Shown: in pieces, positions 10,232 through 60,601 of the stretch | How the letters are laid out: each line of letters begins with the position of its first letter | How positions within the stretch are numbered: position 1 is the first letter of the stretch | IMG/VR virus record: IMGVR_UViG_3300046314_000711 | DNA length: 64,000 bases | Source: a virus | Reading direction: 5' to 3' (one strand) | The notes under the pieces: model-generated | Seen by the model: the letters and a program-made list of their open reading frames with translations, nothing else | The model's database searches: none | Told to the model about the DNA's origin: nothing | Position numbers and translations under genes: made by a program

Positions 10232-10612
10232 TTATCCTTGTTCAGCTATATATTTAGCTATTGTTTCGGTCGAGGCATCCCCAGTAGAACAAACAAAATA
10301 ACCAGATGACTAAAATATACAATTCTTCCAAAAATGTTTTCTCAGTTCGGAGCTGTGTAAGAACCAAACTTTTGCAGTAGTCGTTTGTTTCAATAATCTG
10401 ACAATTTGTGAAACTGACACATTTGGCGAGTAATCAACCAGTAAATGGATATGATCTTTGTCCACTTCCATTACTTGTATTTTGAAATCGGCTGTTTGAT
10501 TTGTTAGTATTGTATCTTTGATGGTCTGTATTAGTTGTGGCTTAGACAGAAGTTTCTTTCTATACTTGACGCAGAACACAATATGGCTTTTGAGTGTAGC
10601 TTTTCTCCCCAT
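10232..10612 (-). pseudogene. tnpA: Y1 HUH transposase TnpA interrupted by an in-frame TAG
   Basis: HIVFCVKYRK, DHIHLL; F-TAG-SSGYFVCSTG...IAKYIAEQG continues in frame past the stop at 10310-12. Confidence 0.85.
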
Positions 10613-10681
10613 TTTGATGGTATATTTTCAATTTTGTATAAATATATTTATGTCAATCAAATCAACTGCATAAATAATAGT

Positions 10682-11956
10682 ATGAAACAGCTGCTCGCTT
10701 ACAAATATAGGATTTACCCAACAGAAGACCAACAAATCCTTCTGAGTAAAACCTTTGGCTGTAAACGGGTAATATTCAACCATTACCTAAATGTGCAACA
10801 AACAAATTTCAAGAACAAAGAAAAGCACCTGAGCAACTATGACATCAATAGAGACATTACTAAACTGAAGGATGAGAAGGACTGGTTACGGGAAGTAGAT
10901 TCTATTGCATTGCAGATGGCAGCAGAAGACCTATCGTTGGCATATGACAATTTCTTCAAATCAACTACTGGTAAGAGAAAGGGTCCGAAGATAGCGGCTC
11001 CTAAGTTCAAAACCAAGAATTCTCGGCAGTCGTATAGAACTCGTGGGGTTCGTATCAATGAAAATGGTTCTTTACAAATACCAAAACTAAAAGCAGTAGA
11101 AGCAGTCATCCATAGAGAAATTCCAGGTGATTCGACAATCAAATCAACAACCATATCAAAGAATACGGATGGAAGATATTACGCATCGATTTTAGTTGAA
11201 ACAGAAGTAGCATTAAAGCCAACGACTGGTAGAGAAGTTGGTTGCGATGTGGGTCTAAAAGATTTACTCATCACTTCAGATGGGATAAAATTCAAAAGAC
11301 CGAATGATTTGCTAAACATTGTGAAAACAAAACAATTGTTGAAGGCAAAACAAAAGCAGTTTGCAAGAACTGATAAAGGCAGTGAAAATCATGAATCAAT
11401 TCGACTCCAAGTAGCAAGATTGTACTCAAAGATCACAAGACAACGAAATGAATATTATCATCTAGTATCAAACTACTTAGTCGATAATTATGATTCCATC
11501 TACGTTGAAGATTTGTCGAGTAAGAATATGCTACAAAACAGGAAGTTGAGTAGAGCAATTCACGAGGCAGCATGGGCCACACTGACTGGAATGATTTCAT
11601 ACAAATCAAATCAGGCAGGTAGGACATATCATCGAATTAGTAGATGGTATCCGAGCAGTAAGACTTGTAGTTCATGCAATTACAAACTTGAAAAGCTCGA
11701 TCTTGGAACCCGAGAATGGACTTGTCCTAACTGTGGAGTCTTTCACGATCGGGATCTAAATGCAGCAAAGAATATACTTCGTGTTGGTCAGATTGACTGC
11801 TACGAAGAGGTAATAGAGTCGCAAGCAACAGGCGATTTGGAATTAAAAATTCCATTGGCCCTACAGAAAATGACTAGTAAAATCGAGAGATCTGGCATAT
11901 GCTTGTCAGTTGGTTATGGGAGTGGGCAAGCTGCACGATCTTTAGTCGTGCAGTAG
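10682..11956 (+). CDS. tnpB: RNA-guided endonuclease TnpB
   Basis: AYKYRIYP N-terminus; RuvC motifs GCDVG, YVEDL, DRDLNAA; CxxC...CxxC zinc finger. Confidence 0.95.
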   Translation: MKQLLAYKYRIYPTEDQQILLSKTFGCKRVIFNHYLNVQQTNFKNKEKHLSNYDINRDITKLKDEKDWLREVDSIALQMAAEDLSLAYDNFFKSTTGKRKGPKIAAPKFKTKNSRQSYRTRGVRINENGSLQIPKLKAVEAVIHREIPGDSTIKSTTISKNTDGRYYASILVETEVALKPTTGREVGCDVGLKDLLITSDGIKFKRPNDLLNIVKTKQLLKAKQKQFARTDKGSENHESIRLQVARLYSKITRQRNEYYHLVSNYLVDNYDSIYVEDLSSKNMLQNRKLSRAIHEAAWATLTGMISYKSNQAGRTYHRISRWYPSSKTCSSCNYKLEKLDLGTREWTCPNCGVFHDRDLNAAKNILRVGQIDCYEEVIESQATGDLELKIPLALQKMTSKIERSGICLSVGYGSGQAARSLVVQ

Positions 11957-15242: not shown

Positions 15243-15677
15243 ATGAGCCTTATTACAGAAATCAAGTCTGCGCAGTTGACTGCTCGTAAGGACCGAAATG
15301 GTCCAATGGCATCACTGCTAACTACCCTCATCGGTGAAGCAGAAATGGTCGGCAAGAATGCTGGCCGTGAAGTGCTTGATGCAGAAGTGGTTGCAACAAT
15401 CAAAAAGTTTATCAAGAACATTGACGAAACAATCAAAGCACTTGGTGTGGAAGATGCTCGTGCACAGGCTGCACAAGACGAACGCGTTGTTCTGGAACAC
15501 TTTCTACCGCGTCAAATGGACGAACAGCAACTGACCGAAGCAGTGACTGCTATCAAGGCTGAACTGAATGCTGGACAAAAAGATATGGGCAAAGTGATGG
15601 GTCTATTGAAGACACGACACGAAGGCCAGTATGATGGTAAGATGGCTTCTACTGTGGTCAAAGCAGTACTCGCCTAA
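15243..15677 (+). CDS. GatB/YqeY domain protein
   Basis: FLPRQMDE, DMGKVMG and YDGK motifs; 144 aa. Confidence 0.9.
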   Translation: MSLITEIKSAQLTARKDRNGPMASLLTTLIGEAEMVGKNAGREVLDAEVVATIKKFIKNIDETIKALGVEDARAQAAQDERVVLEHFLPRQMDEQQLTEAVTAIKAELNAGQKDMGKVMGLLKTRHEGQYDGKMASTVVKAVLA

Positions 15678-19865: not shown

Positions 19866-19973
19866 GGGACTCTAGCATAATTGGTAGTGCTGGGAACTCT
19901 TACGGAGCATCTGCACAAGCGGGTGTTCAAAATAATTCCTAAGGCCTCGGTTCGAACCCGGGGGGTCCCACCA
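19866..19973 (+). ncRNA. tRNA-Lys(CTT)-like RNA with 32-nt hairpin insert in the anticodon loop
   Basis: GGGACTC/GGGTCCC-ACCA; GGGAA-CTCTTA[insert]A-TTCCT; CTCGG-TTCGAAC-CCGGG. Confidence 0.7.
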
Positions 19974-22329: not shown

Positions 22330-22938
22330 ATGAACAACCCTTACTTCCCACCATCCATCTACGGTCACGAGTACGATTTTCTTAAGCCTAAAGTCAAATC
22401 TGCAAAAGGGACAAAGCCTCCAAAAGACAAAAGACCAGTGAACTGGCGCGCTGGTAAAAAATGTACCTGTGCACTAGCTTGTATTACACCATCGGGGCGG
22501 GTGTTAATCTGCCACCCAACTAACGGTCCATTCAAATTCGGCTGGGGGTTTCCAAAGGGTATTAAGGATGATACCGATGCTGATGAAATCTCCGCCGCCC
22601 GCCGAGAACTGCGTGAAGAAACTGGAATAGACCTACCCGATGATATGCTGTACATCAATTGTGGAACATTTGATTATACTAAGGAAAAGGTGTATCGTCT
22701 GTTTGCGGTGAAACTTGATTATGAAATTGACATCACTACACTGCACTGCGAATCAATGTTTACAGATAAGGACGGTACTCAAAAACCCGAGATTGACAAA
22801 TATGATCTTGTTAAGCTCGATCGTTGTTACAAAGATATGACGACAAAACAATCCCTTGTGGTTAAGTCGTGTCTAGCAACACTCCGTGCTACATTGCGGG
22901 GTACTGCGAAAGACACTCGTGTCGATTGGGTACTATAA
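22330..22938 (+). CDS. NUDIX hydrolase
   Basis: WGFPKG...AARRELREETG Nudix box. Confidence 0.9.
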   Translation: MNNPYFPPSIYGHEYDFLKPKVKSAKGTKPPKDKRPVNWRAGKKCTCALACITPSGRVLICHPTNGPFKFGWGFPKGIKDDTDADEISAARRELREETGIDLPDDMLYINCGTFDYTKEKVYRLFAVKLDYEIDITTLHCESMFTDKDGTQKPEIDKYDLVKLDRCYKDMTTKQSLVVKSCLATLRATLRGTAKDTRVDWVL

Positions 22939-24108: not shown

Positions 24109-24230
24109 ATGAAATACTAGAAGGTGTGTGCATCAAGCAACAAATGGTCGATCAAATTAAAAGTTGACCACTTATATTGAGGTGGTTAAAGTAAAAGCAT
24201 ATATACATTCATCAACCAAAGGATTTTAAA

Positions 24231-24590
24231 ATGTTGTAGATTTCTCACAAAACATACTGCTACGTGTTCATCCGGACGGATATTCCATTAGCACAGCAAA
24301 TCGTGCAGGCGAATCACTCGACCCTTCACGCTGGTCTTTTAGCCGGGCAATCCGGTCATAGTTATACACAGACCCCTTCTATAGTTTTATTACAGATTTC
24401 GAACGAAGCAAAGCTACTCAAAGCTCACGCTCGCATCACGTCCCTCAGGATTCCATGTGAGATTTTCTTCGAACCAGATGGCGAAGCTCTTGGATACGAG
24501 TCTTCGTTTACCTCTTTTGCTACTATTCCTGTGGCAGAAGAACTTCGCGCCGAGTTTCGGCAATATAGACTTTGGAGATCCCCACTATGA
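24231..24590 (+). CDS. PTH2-like peptidyl-tRNA hydrolase with in-frame amber at codon 3
   Basis: AAGGA RBS, then ATG TTG TAG ATT... in frame with YCYVFIRTDIPLAQQIVQANH and FFEPD. Confidence 0.7.
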
Positions 24591-24892
24591 CTACTACCCT
24601 AACTACACTACCAGCTTTTGCAACCATGGATGACTACAAAACATGGAGAGCAGCATGGAGAGCAGAATACGCTCAACTAACACTCGACATTCGTGTTGCA
24701 AAGATTAAGCTACGTAGCACTAACCGTGAATACTCTGCCACAGGTACATCTGCACTGTACATTGCTACTACCGCAGCTCGCTGCCAGGTAACGAGCCACA
24801 GCAAACGAGCTAATAAGGCGATTGACACTCGCCATGCTTCAAAAGTGCGTGCAGCAGAACTATATGCAGCTACGCACGTGGAGGTGGCATAA
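24587..24892 (+). CDS. Hypothetical helical protein
   Basis: GGAGA RBS; ATGA overlap with the upstream stop. Confidence 0.65.
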   Translation: MTTTLTTLPAFATMDDYKTWRAAWRAEYAQLTLDIRVAKIKLRSTNREYSATGTSALYIATTAARCQVTSHSKRANKAIDTRHASKVRAAELYAATHVEVA

Positions 24893-24929
24893 AATGTGGT
24901 AGATTGACAAGACTGAGCTCGAAGCTCAA

Positions 24930-25457
24930 ATGAGGACTTGTTTTCAGTTCAAGACGATCGATATGCTGGACCACGGAAACATGGTCCACGCAGCATACAT
25001 GCAGATCGTTGGTGATATTGAAAATGACAATCTGTCCAAGTATCCAGCGTGTACAGCGCAGATTTGGCACAAGTATCGAGCGACTTTGCCAAGCCTTGAA
25101 ACAATCCGGTTGTACCATGTGTATCACGATTGTGGCAAGCACTTGTCACTGACGATTGATAACGAAGGCCGCCGGCATTATCCAAACCATGCGGAGCACA
25201 GTTACCAGCTGTTCTCCAAGTACAATGATGATGTGGTGGCTGCTACACTTATCAAACACGATATGCACCTGCACATACTGCGTGGTGAAGAGCTTTGTCA
25301 GTTCCTTAAATCATTCGACTACATTGGGATTTTGTGGCTGACTGCATCAGCAGAGTTGCATGCAAATGCGGAAATGTTTGGCGGTTATGACCAAACCTCT
25401 TTTAAGATAAAGTTGAAACAGATAGAGAAAGCAGGTAAGCGATTGCTTTCTACGTAA
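24930..25457 (+). CDS. HD-domain phosphohydrolase
   Basis: H...YHDCGK...HYPNHAEHS...HDMHLH. Confidence 0.8.
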   Translation: MRTCFQFKTIDMLDHGNMVHAAYMQIVGDIENDNLSKYPACTAQIWHKYRATLPSLETIRLYHVYHDCGKHLSLTIDNEGRRHYPNHAEHSYQLFSKYNDDVVAATLIKHDMHLHILRGEELCQFLKSFDYIGILWLTASAELHANAEMFGGYDQTSFKIKLKQIEKAGKRLLST

Positions 25458-25462
25458 GATGC

Positions 25463-25536
25463 GCCCATGAAACTTTAAGGTGAAGTGTCAGTCTCTAAAA
25501 CTGGAAAACTCGGCTCGGTACCGAGCATGGGCACCA
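25463..25536 (+). tRNA. Amber suppressor tRNA (CTA)
   Basis: GCCCATG/CATGGGC-ACCA; ACTT/AAGT D stem; TCAGT-CTCTAAA-ACTGG; CTCGG-CTCGGTA-CCGAG. Confidence 0.8.
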
Positions 25537-25595: not shown

Positions 25596-26021
25596 ATGCA
25601 AGACGTTAATCAACAACCAGTTAGTATCACCACCGCCACGTGGACCGCAACTCAGGTTCCGCATGTGTGGCAAACGGTGGATGGTAAATTTGTCTGGACA
25701 ACCGAAACTGGGAGCTCTGGTGATGATATCCTATATCCAGATATTCCTGATGCAGTTCGTGCAATGAATGTCTACAACTTCTTTGTGTTGGAAGGTCTCG
25801 GAGAGCGTTTGCGCACAGAAGTATTCAATGTAACATTCAAAAAGTCTGACGGCACACTGCGAACAATGCGTTGCACTTCTAATCCATCAGCATTTCCAGT
25901 GCGCGAATCAACAGAACCCACAAAGGCTTCCAATCCTGATGTCCAGGTTGTGTTTGACCTCGATAAAAAAGCTATCCGGTCATTTCGACGGGATAGCATT
26001 GTGAGTTTTACAGTGGCTTAA
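25596..26021 (+). CDS. WYL-like SH3-fold protein
   Basis: VTFKKSDGTLRTMRCT...VFDLDKKAIRSFR. Confidence 0.7.
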   Translation: MQDVNQQPVSITTATWTATQVPHVWQTVDGKFVWTTETGSSGDDILYPDIPDAVRAMNVYNFFVLEGLGERLRTEVFNVTFKKSDGTLRTMRCTSNPSAFPVRESTEPTKASNPDVQVVFDLDKKAIRSFRRDSIVSFTVA

Positions 26022-26026
26022 CAGGT

Positions 26027-26368
26027 TTATGCTGCTGGCGAGATAATACGTGTGCGGAGGTTGGTGATTTTGTCATCGACCTCTTTCACTTTTGCATACT
26101 CGAATGATGTTGGATCGAGAGTGCTTAGCAAAAAGATTCTAAGAACCCGAGGTAGGAGAGACTGCTCTTCAATCTGCTTAATCTCAGCCTGTGCCATGCT
26201 CGAATCTAGTAGCGACAGTGTAGTACTATCCTTCGGAGTGTTTGTAATCGTATACACTCCGTTGTCAAGGGTCTGCGATACCCAGAAGTAACGATTGTAG
26301 TCGATCCTGTGCTTGAGGTGATTAGTATTTTGCCAGCCATTTGAATAATTCCTGTATGTTATGCGCAA
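26027..26368 (-). CDS. Tail-fibre-associated hypothetical protein
   Basis: Overlaps the end of the fibre gene, same strand. Confidence 0.5.
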   Translation of the reverse strand: MRITYRNYSNGWQNTNHLKHRIDYNRYFWVSQTLDNGVYTITNTPKDSTTLSLLDSSMAQAEIKQIEEQSLLPRVLRIFLLSTLDPTSFEYAKVKEVDDKITNLRTRIISPAA

Positions 26369-31893: not shown

Positions 31894-32502
31894 ATGTTAA
31901 ATGTACAGAAATTTATTGCTACTAATGGTCTCGACTCTTTGTCGGAACAGTTTAGCATTGATATTAAGAAATACGAAAATGGGTATGTAAAGCTTAATTA
32001 CAGCCAAATTGATTCTCCAAAGTATCACCCAATTTGTGATGAGTGTAGAGGATTAGTACTGCAGATATTACCTGACAACTCGTCTGTTGTTATATCTCGT
32101 TCGTTCAATAGATTTTATAATTTTGGCGAGGGGGATACCAAATTGTTTGATTTTTCAGATTGTTCAGTATATGAAAAAGCCGATGGATCACTAGTAATGG
32201 TGTCTTGGTCACCTGTCGATAACAAATGGATCATCGGTACTCGTGGAATGCTCTATGCAGAAGGGAGTTTCGGATTTTCATTAACAGCAGCTGGTGGGAC
32301 ATTTTATGATTGGATCTTAAAAGCAATGCAACTAAATGAGTCTCAATTCCAGTCATGTATGAGTGGGTTTTCTCAAGACTACACATACGTGATGGAGTTT
32401 TGTGGAATGGCAAACAGAATTGTTACACCATATTCTGATAATTTTATGGTATTATTGGCTGTGGTGCACAATCAGACTGGAGCGGAACTTTTGTTAAATT
32501 AA
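31894..32502 (+). CDS. T4 Rnl1-like RNA ligase, N-terminal fragment
   Basis: ECRGLVL, SFNRFYNFGE, motif I EKADGSL, YVMEF...NRIV. Confidence 0.85.
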   Translation: MLNVQKFIATNGLDSLSEQFSIDIKKYENGYVKLNYSQIDSPKYHPICDECRGLVLQILPDNSSVVISRSFNRFYNFGEGDTKLFDFSDCSVYEKADGSLVMVSWSPVDNKWIIGTRGMLYAEGSFGFSLTAAGGTFYDWILKAMQLNESQFQSCMSGFSQDYTYVMEFCGMANRIVTPYSDNFMVLLAVVHNQTGAELLLN

Positions 32503-33352
32503 GTTTGCAATTATCGAAGTGCCATCGTTTCATTACACTGTCGCCACCAAGTTTTTCACAAAACGGACATTTAACTAATGGCCGTTTTGTTCCTCGAACT
32601 AATGCTGCTCTTGCTTCTACGATTGCTGCCGATATTTTTTTACCATATGAGTGATGTTTTTCTCCTCTCTTTCCGTAGTTACCGTTTTTCTCTCCAGTAT
32701 TTCGCCCACTATCTAACCAGCGTTGCTTTACTTCATCTGAAGTATGCTTCCCGTAATTTGGATTATTCTCTCCAGAGAATCTTTCACTCATTCGTTGCTT
32801 GTGCTCTTCTGTATGATGCTTCCCGAACATAGGATGTTCAGCTCCACACTTCCCAAAAGGACTACGGGTTCCATTAGCAAACTGTTCTTTCATTTTAATC
32901 GACTTTAATTCTCGTTGCTCTGGTGTTAATTGTTTGACACCATGCTTTGCGACATGTTCTTTTCTATTTTTAGACCGCAGTGCTCGTAGCTCTTCCGTCG
33001 TGGTGTATACGCGGTTTGGGAACTTTTTTCCAAAAACTCCATTCCCAACGCCTGGAGTAGATCCACCATCTATCCCATTTTCTAATATTTGGTTTGCCCA
33101 CAGAGTGGATTCAACAATGTCTTCTTGTATAGAGAAATTCATGGCAAACTCTGTCAATGATTTTTCGTCTAAAAATAAACAATACCACAGCGTTGCAACA
33201 AACTTCTTTCCGTGCTTTGCGATGTGTCGTTTCCAATGAACTCCCGACCCAACATATTTCTCTGGATCTTTTATTGTTTTACCGAAGTACAGTTTTCCAG
33301 TTTTTGTGTGCTGCTTGATGTATAAAAAAGTCGGTACGAATGTTGTTGACAC
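32444..33352 (-). CDS. GIY-YIG homing endonuclease with NUMOD3-like repeats
   Basis: LYIKQH...LYFGKT...YVGSG; repeated PMFGKHHTEE/PNYGKHTSDE. Confidence 0.85.
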   Translation of the reverse strand: MSTTFVPTFLYIKQHTKTGKLYFGKTIKDPEKYVGSGVHWKRHIAKHGKKFVATLWYCLFLDEKSLTEFAMNFSIQEDIVESTLWANQILENGIDGGSTPGVGNGVFGKKFPNRVYTTTEELRALRSKNRKEHVAKHGVKQLTPEQRELKSIKMKEQFANGTRSPFGKCGAEHPMFGKHHTEEHKQRMSERFSGENNPNYGKHTSDEVKQRWLDSGRNTGEKNGNYGKRGEKHHSYGKKISAAIVEARAALVRGTKRPLVKCPFCEKLGGDSVMKRWHFDNCKLNLTKVPLQSDCAPQPIIP

Positions 33353-33399
33353 TTATTGCTGTCCTTATAATTGCATTGTTATGGACTATTTATACTAAA

Positions 33400-33933
33400 A
33401 TGAAAACCTTACCTCAAATCTGCGCTCAATTGCAGCAACAGGGAATGAATATTCGATTGCCGTTTACGTATGCTGCTACAGATGGTGCGGCGTTGGTAAA
33501 GTTAGCCAATGATCTACCAAGACTACAAGAGGGGTTCGTTGTATACGATAACAAATCTGGCCGTCGGTTAAAAATCAAGAGTTCGGTGTATGTTGCTGTC
33601 CACCACCTGCGAGGAAATGGAATTCCATCACAAGGTAAGTTGATGGAATTAGTACTTAAAAACGAACAAGCCGAGCTGCTAACATACTTCGCAGAATTTT
33701 CTGAATATGTGGCACCTATCGAGCAAGCACTTGAAATATTACTCACTGAAGCTGACCAACTGGTCGAGGCTACTCACGATCTACCGACTCAAAAAGACTT
33801 TGCGCTAGCAGTAAAGGATACTCCTCTTGCTCCACTGCTGTTTAAGACTCGGGCACTGCATAGTGGAGCTCGTCATACTTTCAGCCAATTAGACATCAAC
33901 CTACAATGTAAGATATTGGGGAAATTCCTATGA
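33400..33933 (+). CDS. T4 Rnl1-like RNA ligase, C-terminal fragment
   Basis: Motif IV QEGFVV and motif V RLKIKSSVYVAVHH; likely start MKTLPQ. Confidence 0.8.
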   Translation: MKTLPQICAQLQQQGMNIRLPFTYAATDGAALVKLANDLPRLQEGFVVYDNKSGRRLKIKSSVYVAVHHLRGNGIPSQGKLMELVLKNEQAELLTYFAEFSEYVAPIEQALEILLTEADQLVEATHDLPTQKDFALAVKDTPLAPLLFKTRALHSGARHTFSQLDINLQCKILGKFL

Positions 33934-34265
33934 CATCTGAAATCACGTTGATAGAACCGACATCACTAGAGGGGAATCCAAGCGATCTTCGTGATACACT
34001 TGACATGGTAACCGAAGAATGTGCAGAAGTCATTCAAGCGATATCCAAAGTCAAGCGATTTGGACTCGATGATGGTTGGGGAAGTACGCAATCAAGTCGT
34101 CAACAACTGGAGACTGAGGTTGGTGATTTGTTGTGTCTGATCAGCATTCTTGTTGATAACAAAGTGTTAGACCGTGATGCTATCGAAGTCGCACGATTTA
34201 AAAAATCCCTCAAGATACAGTGGTGGGCCCCCAATGTTGCAAATTATTTCAAAGGTAAAATGTAA
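33930..34265 (+). CDS. MazG-like nucleotide pyrophosphohydrolase
   Basis: EECAEVIQAISK...EVGDL. Confidence 0.85.
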   Translation: MTSEITLIEPTSLEGNPSDLRDTLDMVTEECAEVIQAISKVKRFGLDDGWGSTQSSRQQLETEVGDLLCLISILVDNKVLDRDAIEVARFKKSLKIQWWAPNVANYFKGKM

Positions 34266-41439: not shown

Positions 41440-43278
41440 CTACAGATTCATTACCCAACGCTGTTTACCACAATCGAAAATTTGGTACCATTTTGCTCGT
41501 TTAGTGTTTTCAGTTTCACTCATCGTTGGATCATACGAATCCCCTAATATCTTTGGCAGCCGAGAATGTCTAAAATTAAATTTATGAATTAATTCAGCCC
41601 CTTTAGTGTAATAGTAGTCTGGAGGAATCGTAGCCTCAAGAGTAAACCCAGTTTTTTCGTATAAATTCCCATCGCTCCACCTCAAATCAGCGAATGATAC
41701 AATCCGTGTCCACGATTGCTGATTAATTGCGTATTTTAGTAGCTTTGAAAACCCACCTACTACTCTACAACTGGTTGCGTATCGATTTAGTGTAGCTGTA
41801 TTTCCATTGTCACTAATAATAAACCCCATCACTGCAACTGGCGTGCCACACTCATCTTGTAGCGCTATGTTATAGCTAGATGGGCCATTTCCTTGAATAT
41901 GATTGACTTCGAAAAAATCTCGCTTCTCATCTGCAGTAATTGACGATACTGTTGTTGTTCTACCATACACAACTTTCCTCGCATCAAGTCCAAGTATGGA
42001 CTCAATCTTTAATTCACATATTCTCCTAGTATCAATCCACTCATTTGAAAAAATTGTCAATAATCTAACACCCTTTGTTCGGCATTGATCCATTTTGTGT
42101 TTGTGGTATGATGGAGTAATCCGTTCTTGTGAAGTTGAATGCCAATATAACCCACAATATTCAATTGCAAGATTGTAATCAGGTAAAAAGATATCTATTT
42201 GTTTTGGTGACACTAAAGTTCGATCATTTTCGATAATATTGGAAATGCCTAAAGACTTAATAAAATTCAAAACTTCATTTTGTTGAGCAGTCTTGAACTT
42301 GTGTTTAATTGCTTTAATGCCATACAGTTTGAAACGGTTAGATACCGTTTCCTTATCAACTCCTATTAAAGTAGCAAGTTGTTGCTTTGTGAGCTTGTGG
42401 TTATAGTGTTGGTCGTACAACCAGTCGGGGTTATTTAATCTTGTGTCTGTATTTTTATTTCCAGGAACGTTGGGGATAGGGTTGGTTATCTTGTCTAATT
42501 TAGCCAATTTATGAGCTTGTTGGGCCATGCTAAACTGATTGGTACAGTCTGCACACCATTTTTTAAGCTTTCTCGTATCAAGATTCGCAGGGCGTTGACG
42601 AGTCATGCACTTCGGGCATGTATTATTAGCATATCGCGATCGTATTGACAATTCTTGCACTGTAATACCTAAATCTGTCGCTTCATCGATTGCAGTCTGC
42701 TGAGCTGCGATCTTTGCATCATACTTTGCCGGATCGATGACATATGCAATTCGTTCTTTAATTTGGTAGCTTACAGGTAAATGCTCTGTATACTGCTGTA
42801 TATTGTGATATAAGCATGGATAAGCAACCTTAAATCCGTTAAACATATCAATTGTTGGCAATAGTTGCAACTGGCGTTTAAGCTCTTCTAGTGGCAACAC
42901 AATTGATGACTGATGCTCATCATATATTTGCCGACAATATGTGCTGCAAGTTGTGTATTTGTTTCGTTTAAGTCGATTATTGCACACTGCACAAGTCTTA
43001 AACACGGTTCTATTTTGTGGCTTGGGTGGGCTGCACTGCCTGCTGCAGTATTTACGATATTGTTGAGTTACAATGTTCCAGTTCACGGGAGATGTACACA
43101 TATCGCATTGTGGGACAGCGAATGTGCTACTAATGTGATGCCACAACCGCTGTGTGGATGATGCATCACTGGGTAAGAAAGCAGTAGTATCTTTAAGATA
43201 CTGATAAAATTCAGGTTCTATTTTCGATAATGCATTTGTTCCTCGGGTAGAGTACTTCTGGATGAGTTTTGTAAACAT
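41440..43278 (-). CDS. Hef-like/PD-(D/E)xK homing endonuclease with zinc-finger repeats
   Basis: IDIFLPDYNLAIEYCGLYWHS; SFADLRWSDG; YCSRQC. Confidence 0.8.
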   Translation of the reverse strand: MFTKLIQKYSTRGTNALSKIEPEFYQYLKDTTAFLPSDASSTQRLWHHISSTFAVPQCDMCTSPVNWNIVTQQYRKYCSRQCSPPKPQNRTVFKTCAVCNNRLKRNKYTTCSTYCRQIYDEHQSSIVLPLEELKRQLQLLPTIDMFNGFKVAYPCLYHNIQQYTEHLPVSYQIKERIAYVIDPAKYDAKIAAQQTAIDEATDLGITVQELSIRSRYANNTCPKCMTRQRPANLDTRKLKKWCADCTNQFSMAQQAHKLAKLDKITNPIPNVPGNKNTDTRLNNPDWLYDQHYNHKLTKQQLATLIGVDKETVSNRFKLYGIKAIKHKFKTAQQNEVLNFIKSLGISNIIENDRTLVSPKQIDIFLPDYNLAIEYCGLYWHSTSQERITPSYHKHKMDQCRTKGVRLLTIFSNEWIDTRRICELKIESILGLDARKVVYGRTTTVSSITADEKRDFFEVNHIQGNGPSSYNIALQDECGTPVAVMGFIISDNGNTATLNRYATSCRVVGGFSKLLKYAINQQSWTRIVSFADLRWSDGNLYEKTGFTLEATIPPDYYYTKGAELIHKFNFRHSRLPKILGDSYDPTMSETENTKRAKWYQIFDCGKQRWVMNL

Positions 43279-45158: not shown

Positions 45159-45687
45159 TTATGTCGTGGAATAATGTCTTACCTTGGTGGATATACGAAC
45201 TCGAACACGAACACTTTTTAGCAAGTGCTGCGTGTGCGTTCGAGGGTGAGTGGTTTGCTGGTACGTCTCGTGCTATGCCTGACTACGTGATACGCACATC
45301 TAAAGCAACGCTATCAAGCTGGAAGTTTGGTGGGTGGAACTATAACTATAGTGCGGAAGAAATTAAAGAGCTCAACCAATTACACAACACTTCAACCTCT
45401 CAACCTGACTGGTAGCAACCATTGCAAATCATGTTATACAATACTGACAATAATACAACTGCCACAGAACTGCGTACTATGATTCACTTTCTAAAAATAA
45501 CGGTCCAAGAGAAAAGTAAAGGTGAAGATTACCGAGCATTTCTTGACTGGGCGGATTCTAAAACGATGACAGTGTTTCAGCTCCGTGGATACGGAGACAC
45601 TCCAGGTAAAGCTGCTGATGATGCAAATGCCAAATACGAAGACGAAGACGATCGAGATTCATATATTGCAGATCAGTGGGGGTGGGA

Positions 45688-59513: not shown

Positions 59514-60178
59514 GATGTTTGAGCTATACGAGTTCATGTGTGAGCAAGAGGATTTTTTCGAACTGTTTGAAATGGCAAACATGCACAGCAGTGTGCACGG
59601 TATTCGAGACGTTGTTATTTGGGTTGGTATGGCTAACATGCAACACGGGTTACGGATCAAAGTATCAAACGTAAAAAATAAATTCGATCCACACAACAAC
59701 TTTGTAATACAAATGCCAAGTTTGGACTATAACCCTGTAAAAGTTGCAAAATGGATAACAACAGATACGATGACTCAAATTCAAAATTGGGTTAAATTGA
59801 ACCAAGACACCCTTGTTGACTACGAAACAGGTAAACTAGACGATACGTTGGTGTTTTTGAATAAAATAGTAAAGGTGTAAGATACAGTGACTAATGAACT
59901 ATCGCAAACTACAATCAACGCAATCTCAAAGACTGACCCAAACAGTCGAGTTGCATTCCAACGTCGATTAACCAACCTAGAAGCGTATATCACGAACGAT
60001 ATTAACCCTATTGAGCAACAAATTCTCGAGCTACGAGCGAAACTGATCCCTCTGTACGATGCCGTTCACATGCTTCGTGATGAGGCGCGTGCTCATTGTA
60101 CGCACGCGCCTGAACAACTCACAAGGCAAGAGGACGGCTCCATCAAGTGCAAGTTTTGCGAAACCCTCTTTCACATCA

Positions 60179-60601
60179 ATGAGTGATCTAACCATCTTTC
60201 AAATTCTCAATGAGATTGAAAAGAAAAACTACTTCCTGTGGGAGCAGTTGAATGAGAGTGAGCAGAAACAATTCCATCCTCTCGTACTGATGAAGTGGAT
60301 GTTGTATAGTGGTGTGTCTCCAATCGCTTTACAGCGCGTCAACCACAATCTTTTTGCATTAACGAAGGACCAGCAGTTCCTGAAGCTTGCAACTGTTGGA
60401 CAAAAGAAATCCAGGAAGTGGGAATGGGTAGCGAAGAAGCCTGTTATCGAAGAACAGTTGAAAGCAATCCAGTACGTATACGATACTAATAGTCGACAAG
60501 CAGAGCAAACACTCGATCTTTTGACCCCTGCAGAACTTGAACAAGTAATACAAGAATATCGTGACAGCACTCCTAAAAAAGAAACCAAAAAGCGCAGGTA
60601 G
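60179..60601 (+). CDS. Clamp loader small subunit (gp62-like)
   Basis: FQILNEI...FHPLVLMKW...WV; context. Confidence 0.6.
   Translation: MSDLTIFQILNEIEKKNYFLWEQLNESEQKQFHPLVLMKWMLYSGVSPIALQRVNHNLFALTKDQQFLKLATVGQKKSRKWEWVAKKPVIEEQLKAIQYVYDTNSRQAEQTLDLLTPAELEQVIQEYRDSTPKKETKKRR

Follow-up and report, generated by a model that had tools for sequence, protein, structure and literature searches.

Early in-frame stop codons and a phage-encoded suppressor tRNA: a probable translational gate on PTH2-like and HD-domain genes

In a 64,000-nucleotide stretch of virus DNA (IMG/VR record IMGVR_UViG_3300046314_000711; the whole of this stretch is called the window here) two genes, one for a PTH2-like protein and the other for an HD-domain protein, each begin with ATG, a single sense codon and an in-frame TAG, and behind them stands a tRNA gene with the anticodon CUA. 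Very probably this constitutes a translational gate on the two genes worked by the phage-encoded suppressor tRNA, and comparison with related phages suggests that the tRNA is charged and decodes the gate codon. A preliminary description of the locus had proposed that synthesis of the PTH2-like hydrolase depends on the suppressor tRNA. That dependence now has strong comparative support, in that the gate persists in proteins only some 30% identical, canonical starts beyond the stop are lacking in some relatives, certain HD genes carry internal TAGs, and gate codon and anticodon have changed together. The gate on the PTH2-like gene is present as described but is not alone, the gate on the HD gene having been missed.

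Both gates lie on the plus strand, as do the genes they precede. At the first, the Shine-Dalgarno (SD) sequence AAGGA (24219-24223) is placed 7 nt ahead of ATG 24231, followed by TTG (Leu) and by TAG as codon 3 at 24237-24239 (the gate as a whole being 24231-24239), and the frame runs unbroken into an open reading frame (ORF) which the ORF list begins only at GTG 24264. A script verified the coordinates of this arrangement as first described, and GTG 24264, being residue 9 after the TAG, does fall within the first strand (predicted residues 5-12), as was originally suggested. The PTH2-fold gene so read spans 24231-24590, 119 codons including the read-through TAG. Related loci are given L-numbers here, and the survey drew on 80 IMG/VR loci with an HD homolog, which reduce to 57 clusters at 80% or more identity; RsoM2USA, a Ralstonia jumbo phage, is the only DNA-level match among deposited phages. 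The spacing from AAGGA to ATG is identical in RsoM2USA, L032, L061 and L035, and the 17-nt block surrounding the first gate is unchanged across four phages at a protein identity of 60-91%. The second gate, found by reading the sequence and by a pattern scan, has GGAGG (24880-24884) 9 nt ahead of ATG 24894, then TGG and TAG as codon 3 at 24900-24902 (gate 24894-24902), is in frame with the ORF-list start ATG 24930 and is identical in L061 and L165. The HD-domain gene it opens spans 24894-25457, 187 codons including the read-through TAG, and the 74-nt tRNA(CUA) with its encoded CCA (25463-25536) begins 5 nt past the HD stop codon.

Decoding by the phage tRNA, as opposed to a downstream start or re-initiation, is strongly argued for by a matched change of gate codon and anticodon, for which no rival explanation accounts. 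Five members of the window clade (the window itself, L061, L165, L164 and L032) keep a TAG gate together with a tRNA(CUA). In L162/L163, where the PTH2-like protein is 81% identical to that of the window, the gate is ATG, four codons and TGA (codon 6) with the conserved N-terminus in frame, and the orthologous tRNA, at the same place behind a small helical gene and about 85% identical to that of the window, has the anticodon UCA. L089 and L102 were first scored as ungated; their HD genes start with ATG, one codon and TGA, and the contigs each carry a tRNA(UCA), while none of the tRNAs read in them (41 and 15, respectively) is a tRNA(CUA). TGA serves as the gate codon in three lineages, each with a tRNA(UCA) instead, and in at least two independent lineages the gate stop and the suppressor anticodon have changed together. 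Both CUA to UCA and TAG to TGA can be reached by two transitions, via CCA and TGG (Trp), so that evolution could re-key the lock and key, turning TAG/CUA into TGA/UCA, possibly with TGG/CCA (Trp) as a harmless stage in between.

Homologs with a sense codon at the gate, or with initiation further downstream, had been named as a point on which the dependence could fail, and instead an early in-frame TAG at codon 2-4 is found in 12 of the 12 other PTH2-like genes whose start was read, at identities of about 30-80% (L032, RsoM2USA, L033-L036, fHe-Yen9-03, ME3, XbC2, GAP32, Arash and the XacN1 fusion). The PTH2-like homolog of RsoM2USA is wholly unannotated and shows the same arrangement of SD, ATG, Leu codon, TAG and Ile codon, with TGT aligned to GTG 24264 of the window and with codon 108 of 119 as its first canonical start after the TAG; its HD gene reads ATG, two codons and TAG in frame with the annotated start, the intervening residues being conserved with the window. 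Across the survey an in-frame TAG interrupts one or both of the PTH2-like and HD genes in 53 of the 57 non-redundant clusters, and L133 makes a 54th through a gated canonical PTH2 gene that the first search missed. The position of the early TAG (n = 67) is codon 3 in 34 cases, codon 4 in 18, codon 5 in 6, codon 2 in 4 and codons 7-9 in 5, and the codons before it vary freely among relatives. The recurrence expected by the preliminary description therefore extends widely for the early TAG, and synteny with a tRNA(CUA) is frequent and not obligatory: 31 of the 53 gated clusters have one no more than 6 kb away, five of six cultured phages have one in the 10-kb stretch around the module, and RsoM2USA has its single tRNA(CUA) about 12 kb from the gated genes.

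Fused forms of the two genes are gated in the same manner. PTH2-HD fusions occur in pT24 and about eight IMG/VR loci and HD-PTH2 fusions in XacN1, L125 and L137, and all begin with Met, 1-8 codons and TAG, the true start of the XacN1 ORF (HD then PTH2) being ATG, one codon, TAG. In GAP32, XbC2 and fHe-Yen9-03 the HD gene starts normally and has its TAG at codon 47, past the invariant His-Gly, which is why annotators split these genes; internal TAGs at other sites are found in L078, L079, L090, L121 and L126, and internal TAGs are not bypassable by the choice of another start. Between the TAG and the first canonical start, the window differs from L061 and L032 by synonymous changes only (the PTH2-like gene 4 of 4, the HD gene 3 of 3) and ungated HD homologs translate the same N-terminal helix, so by the pattern of substitution this stretch is evidently coding.

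The gate seems specific to these genes. When the whole window was scanned for an SD, ATG, 1-5 codons, TAG and an ORF of at least 70 codons exactly two matches resulted, the PTH2-like and HD genes, and the same scan with TAA or TGA gave one SD-bearing match. In the 343,806-base RsoM2USA genome the pattern picks out the two homologous genes and one likely spurious match. Its strict form in the 57 loci gives 32 TAG matches within PTH2-like and HD genes and, outside them, 8 for TAG (2 being canonical PTH2 genes), 6 for TAA and 9 for TGA. No further gated genes emerged in the window or RsoM2USA, and the only credible extras in the 57 loci are canonical PTH2 genes. A promoter or repeat shared by the two gates was considered and rejected, since the exact 15-mer occurs only twice in the window, at the two gated gene starts, and matches allowing 3 mismatches are at chance level there.

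As to the tRNA itself, the complete molecule with anticodon CTA and encoded CCA first noted at 25463-25536 is borne out by an ARAGORN call and by a score of 44.2 bits against the Rfam tRNA model RF00005 (gathering threshold 29), matched over its full length, 1-71. The CUA anticodon sits in a 7-nt loop, C-U-[CUA]-A-A, with U33 and a purine at 37, as suits an amber suppressor. Among the five clade members 97.1% of the cells in the cloverleaf are paired and 12 of 21 pairs have changed on both sides, a covariation that 0 of 500 shuffles reach and for which slid controls give 0-3 pairs, and by this comparison the suppressor tRNA is judged to be under selection. Across phages the suppressor tRNAs resemble one another more than any sense tRNA; about 40 of 47 distinct ones from related loci have the anticodon loop CUCUAAA, and the discriminator base in the 47 is A in 32 and G in 11. 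ARAGORN's label of tRNA-Pyl reflects the anticodon only. A tRNA-Pyl is marked by a short D-loop that lacks G18-G19 and by an anticodon stem of 6 bp, and the 7-nt D-loop with GG and the 5-bp anticodon stem found here rule it out.

Which amino acid the suppressor carries was sought through similarity to 357 sense tRNAs, and no consistent nearest isotype was obtained: Arg, Thr, Val, Met and Lys come top, and Trp and Gln are low. Residues aligned to internal TAGs fall mostly in variable columns, and the position in L078/L079/L090 is Trp in 40 of 62 homologs, which from the alignment may be taken as a lead, not proof, for the inserted residue; an A73 discriminator does not fit bacterial tRNA-Trp. 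Sense codons of ungated homologs at the gate weakly indicate Tyr, at position 2-3 in several lineages. Several phages (L070, L075, L076, L123, L131, L139 and others) have two different tRNA(CUA) genes, often one A73 and one G73, and such pairs might be charged with different amino acids. In L145, a phage that also has the TAG gate and a tRNA(CUA), ARAGORN finds at 10807-10885 a further, ochre-type suppressor tRNA whose anticodon is TTA.

Initiation downstream, at GTG 24264 and ATG 24930, with ATG-codon-TAG acting only as a short upstream ORF to reduce or couple translation, is very unlikely, even though gene callers begin both genes there and at least 90% of homologs keep Met 10 of the HD protein. 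For the PTH2-like gene it is excluded by the TGT of RsoM2USA, after whose TAG there is no canonical start for 108 codons, together with the truncation of strand 1 that a start at GTG 24264 would entail. The codons from TAG to the downstream start (nine in the HD gene) change only synonymously in close relatives and are translated in ungated homologs, and the SD spacing suits the upstream ATGs, not the downstream codons. Less probable again is a mini-ORF at which ribosomes terminate and then re-initiate at the adjacent AUU, with the TAG never decoded and the tRNA unrelated. AUU is a rare bacterial start codon, as in infC, both window gates are followed by ATT, and ATT, ATA or ATC comes after 33 of the 67 early gates; the other gates however precede non-initiating codons (AAC in 12, GTT in 9, GTA in 3, and also GCT, ACG, AAA, CTT, CTA and GCA). 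Moreover the internal TAGs, at codon 47 and elsewhere, lie past invariant residues, and re-initiation accommodates neither these nor the joint switch to TGA and UCA, and leaves the linkage to tRNA(CUA) without reason.

A partial recoding, in which TAG is sense across a block of genes as in code-15 phages and the two genes are merely members of that block, has a slighter chance still. It would draw on the presence of the tRNA(CUA) and on TAG being a minority stop (in the window it ends 13 of 91 crude ORFs, in RsoM2USA 17 of 295), but only two genes per 64-kb window and per 343.8-kb RsoM2USA genome fit the gate pattern, the neighbouring genes are intact under the standard code, and the TAG is at codon 2-5 in 62 of 67 cases and not scattered. 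An ORF-coverage test of recoding shows no more than that the standard code works, and the many in-frame TAG genes and disuse of TAG as a terminator typical of code 15 were found in neither the window nor RsoM2USA, each having its two gated genes. That TAG ends ordinary genes and that there is no global recoding had been recognised at the outset, and holds for clear long genes at 628-2013, 10535-11956, 41440-43278 (minus strand) and 60059-60601 and for the gene ending at 45415. Scarcely credible is the remaining explanation, that these are nonsense-mutated pseudogenes or assembly errors and the tRNA an accidental anticodon mutant. Annotators of several cultured phages did leave the PTH2-like gene uncalled or split the HD gene, but dozens of assemblies and isolates, independent of one another, share this stop at an unchanged position and conserve the protein on both sides of it, the window is identical over 20.3 kb to a JGI contig, the PTH2-like product is identical in six JGI samples, and the closeness of the suppressor tRNAs to one another rather than to sense tRNAs does not suit an accident.

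A number of observations do weigh against a gate worked by the suppressor tRNA. Since TAG still ends ordinary window genes, four of the 13 crude ORFs so terminated being clear genes, suppression must be partial or context-dependent. The window tRNA has A8 and a T-loop of C-U-C-G-G-U-A (C54/G58 and not T54/A58), and could on that account be weak or specialised; that of L032 has G54/G58, whereas the other 45 of the 47 suppressor tRNAs have the canonical T54/A58, as have 225 of 230 sense tRNAs in related loci, and the tRNA(UCA) of L162 has a canonical T-loop. ATG 24930, the conserved Met at residue 10, could give a minor ungated HD product without the first helix. Of the gated loci 22 in 53 have no tRNA(CUA) within 6 kb, although it may be elsewhere in the genome, as in RsoM2USA and in XacN1 (in the terminal repeats). 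In L141 suppressor tRNAs adjoin an ungated HD gene, and so the tRNA may have other targets, and in L133 an ungated HD gene is beside a suppressor tRNA, though there with the gated canonical PTH2 gene.

Context may partly protect the ordinary TAG-terminated genes from suppression, the gate TAGs being followed mostly by A or G and never by T. The base after the 67 early TAGs is A in 49, G in 14, C in 4 and T in none, as against T 29, A 23, G 21 and C 14 where a TAG ends an ORF of 120 aa or more in these loci (by Fisher's test T differs with p = 6e-9, A with 8e-9). Of the window genes that end in TAG, the three longest are followed by T, and in two of these another stop comes within one codon. 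No stimulatory RNA structure 3' of the stop was found at either gate (folding z-score 0.40), the bias in the +4 base being the only such feature found.

For the gate worked by the suppressor tRNA, the events envisaged are that ribosomes start at the SD/ATG sites 24231 and 24894 and reach a UAG two codons later, where release factor 1 (RF1) and the charged phage tRNA(CUA) would compete. Should RF1 win only a dipeptide would be made, and should the charged tRNA win, the full enzyme, so that both enzymes would be made only when, and in proportion as, the suppressor tRNA is transcribed, processed and aminoacylated. With the stop at codon 2-5 failed readthrough would cost only a di- to tetrapeptide. 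Because the tRNA and its targets apparently share a transcription unit, the arrangement would amount to a coherent feed-forward loop with AND logic. Quite what the gate is for is a matter of speculation, and it can be proposed that it imposes a delay or AND logic, that it keeps the genes from being expressed outside infection, or that charged tRNA feeds back on it; a timer or AND-gate reading fits the data equally as well as the feedback sensor of tRNA charging or integrity first proposed. A more elaborate and rather doubtful possibility is that the gate is a tRNA-based controller, in which the ratio of charged suppressor to RF1 would read the state of tRNA 3' ends (transcribed, processed, with CCA intact, aminoacylated) and so dose two enzymes that strip and heal those ends, acting as a homeostatic feedback loop or as a checkpoint against host defences that target tRNA, and being re-keyable.

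The PTH2-like gene product is assigned the Pth2 alpha/beta fold from its structure model, the direct family match being below cut-off (Pfam PTH2, PF01981: 15.8 bits against a cut-off of 23, E = 0.017). The AlphaFold (AF2) model has a pLDDT of 87 and Foldseek matches it with probability 1.0 and TM 0.68-0.79 to 2zv3, 1wn2, 1rlk, 1xty, 3erj and 1q7s, and a profile of the family matches 2zv3 with E = 0.0077. In common with Pth2 it has an R-x-D ... Q ... H-A motif near the N-terminus and, in its C-terminal half, an acidic one, but the Gly-Lys loop that follows R-x-D in Pth2 aligns to a gap, with P-L-A-Q-Q there; L121 and L133 have gated canonical PTH2 genes that keep G-K.

The HD protein matches phrog_14850 (E = 1.6e-50) and has 180 homologs, with H24, G25, H75, D76, K79, H96, D120 and H124 invariant in 96 sequences, and it contains the metal-binding motif His ... 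His-Asp ... Asp (H24, H75-D76, H96, D120, H124). No Pfam family is obtained for the window protein at E up to 1, and one homolog, P0078, carries PF01966. In E. coli the CCA-adding enzyme reportedly has an HD phosphoesterase domain, described by Yakunin et al. in 2004. The AF2 model (pLDDT 96.8) has as its best structural match residues 250-446 of PDB 3wfo-3wfs (Z 15.0, rmsd 2.5 Å, 154 residues aligned), the class II CC-adding enzyme bound to tRNA (PMC4810234), as against Z 9-10 for the other HD enzymes PhnZ, PPX/GppA and PgpH. In contrast to the CC-adding enzyme the HD protein is without a nucleotidyltransferase head domain, has 184 residues after the gate codon and is 14-16% identical. PDB sequence searches with both proteins returned only noise at E up to 10.

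Fusion in both orders suggests that the PTH2-like and HD domains work together. From the modelled folds tRNA 3' ends are plausible as the substrate of both enzymes, and the two may act together there, with the ester bond as the target of the Pth2 fold and phosphoesters as that of the HD protein. They may, as the preliminary description proposed, act on this particular tRNA. The folds, the fusions and the neighbouring RNA-end genes make action on tRNA 3' ends a reasonable inference and nothing more. By Pfam these neighbours are a YqeY-domain gene (15243-15677), a NUDIX gene (22330-22938), a T4 Rnl1-type RNA ligase gene (31894-32502) and a MazG gene (33930-34265). The YqeY domain is of the GatB-like, tRNA-binding type, and in XacN1 a YqeY-like gene, under the annotation 'glutamyl-tRNA amidotransferase', precedes the fused HD-PTH2 gene by about 1.5 kb. 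At 31894-33933 of the window (L062 17631-19670) the T4 Rnl1-type ligase ORF and an overlapping opposite-strand NUMOD3 homing-endonuclease ORF are followed by another ORF, and the ligase gene at 31894 may be interrupted by a mobile element. Two further Rfam tRNA matches in the window, 6366-6468 (45.2 bits) and 19866-19970 (44.6 bits), have anticodon-loop insertions of 41 and 34 nt, were not called by ARAGORN when run without introns, and look like intron-bearing genes.

The module appears to be a single transcription unit, running from a promoter-like site at 24164-24192 to a terminator-like hairpin followed by a T run at 26056-26084, the first such past the module, all on the plus strand. The promoter had been placed at TTGACC 24164, and a consensus scan does find this sequence as a −35 (24164-24169) with a 17-nt spacer and TAAAGT (24187-24192) as a −10; the −35 block and its flanks are kept in L061 and L032, but the 9 of 12 matches to the consensus are not above chance on their own. 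The TGA of the PTH2-like gene overlaps the ATG of the next (ATGA, 24587-24590), which is the small helical gene of 101 aa in the ORF list (24587-24892), kept at the same position in L032, L162, L164 and L165 of the window clade. Pfam and PHROG-type profile searches give no family for it. Weak matches to it occur in two distant phages, L033 3559-3633 and L036 3590-3661 (E = 7e-4 and 0.006), in both just behind the HD gene, and the small gene may thus belong to the module as its third component. Behind the tRNA is a gene with a WYL_2 (Sm-like SH3) domain at 25596-26021 (plus strand; Pfam PF10902, E = 4.4e-11), kept after the tRNA in the window clade and probably in the same transcription unit as the module.

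Cellular homologs are few, 14 loci in a search of one genome per species in 185,579 species, and most are phage-looking contigs of metagenome-assembled genomes (MAGs) with the same gate and tRNA. In L149-L154, L157 and L158, MAG contigs binned as Obscuribacterales/Melainabacteria, the HD gene has TAG at codon 3 with a tRNA(CUA) about 50-190 nt downstream, and no PTH2-like gene was detected in this group; these are probably phage contigs inside MAG bins. L159, at about 4950-5000 of the 971-kb megaplasmid CP185741.1 of Pseudomonas fluorescens, has an HD homolog preceded by the ATG-TTG-TAG nonamer, which is shifted by one base from the frame of the HD ORF; neither a canonical start nor a tRNA(CUA) lies within 5 kb, and the locus may be a frameshifted remnant or an assembly indel. 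L155 (Sphingomonas sp. 3-13AW, 4480-5550) has a canonical-PTH2/HD fusion ORF without a canonical start; a mini-ORF of five codons, led by an SD and closed by TGA, lies directly ahead of it in a different frame. In Salmonella phage Arash (L058) the gene at 6310-6384 is recorded as tRNA-Phe and has the anticodon CTA by ARAGORN, and for the PTH2-like gene upstream of it the annotation begins at an internal start and covers only a 'peptidyl-tRNA hydrolase' of 50 aa.

Several known systems bear some likeness to the module. The bar minigenes of phage lambda are ORFs of two or three codons which release short peptidyl-tRNAs that Pth recycles; here a similarly short ORF and stop are ahead of a Pth2-fold gene, and the codons before the stop vary among relatives. 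AND gates combining supD with a T7 RNA polymerase gene bearing amber codons are said to have been built by Anderson et al. in 2007. A synthetic feed-forward 'leak dampener', with an early amber codon and a co-regulated suppressor tRNA giving AND logic, low leak and a delay (PMC7969014), has the same layout as the window, and whereas such amber circuits are engineered, the window module would be a natural and widely conserved counterpart. In Streptomyces the bldA tRNA-Leu(UAA) likewise is one dedicated tRNA controlling a few genes, the TTA genes, via one rare codon (PMC10732093), but it decodes a sense codon, if a rare one, and regulates development of the host, in contrast to the stop codon and release-factor competition here. 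Recoded crAss-like and Lak phages also have a phage tRNA that reads a stop within phage genes in a standard-code host, TAG being read as Gln ('code 15') or TGA as Trp, which is proposed to time gene expression (bioRxiv 10.1101/2021.08.26.457843, PMC9523058, PMC7886860). There however tens of genes are affected, mostly late, structural or lysis genes with many in-frame stops along their length, whereas the window phage keeps the standard code and has two enzyme genes (one fusion in some relatives) with one stop each, usually at codon 2-5, and TAG as a working terminator.

Targets for phage suppressor tRNAs have been sought before. In-silico readthrough of annotated amber stops in XacN1 gave none for its two suppressor tRNAs (PMC5852040), the RsoM2USA paper reports none and offers only a guess (PMC8504454), and for phage Summit none was identified (PMC9022506). 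Full-text literature searches found no description of such a gate. These earlier studies looked past annotated stops, whereas stops at codon 2-5 leave the genes mis-called or uncalled; gene callers truncate or miss gated genes. The module would thereby offer targets for the suppressor tRNAs annotated in many cultured jumbo phages of standard code, and since it is carried by laboratory-grown phages (ME3, GAP32, CBB, BF, fHe-Yen9, Arash, RsoM2USA, XacN1 and pT24) direct testing is possible. If true, the gate would be a natural, conserved translational switch operated by a dedicated tRNA, with the architecture of synthetic amber AND gates. It would also link that switch to tRNA metabolism, the gated enzymes resembling Pth2 and the tRNA-binding HD half of CCA-adding enzymes, and so may bear on how tRNA-rich phages manage or defend their tRNA pool.

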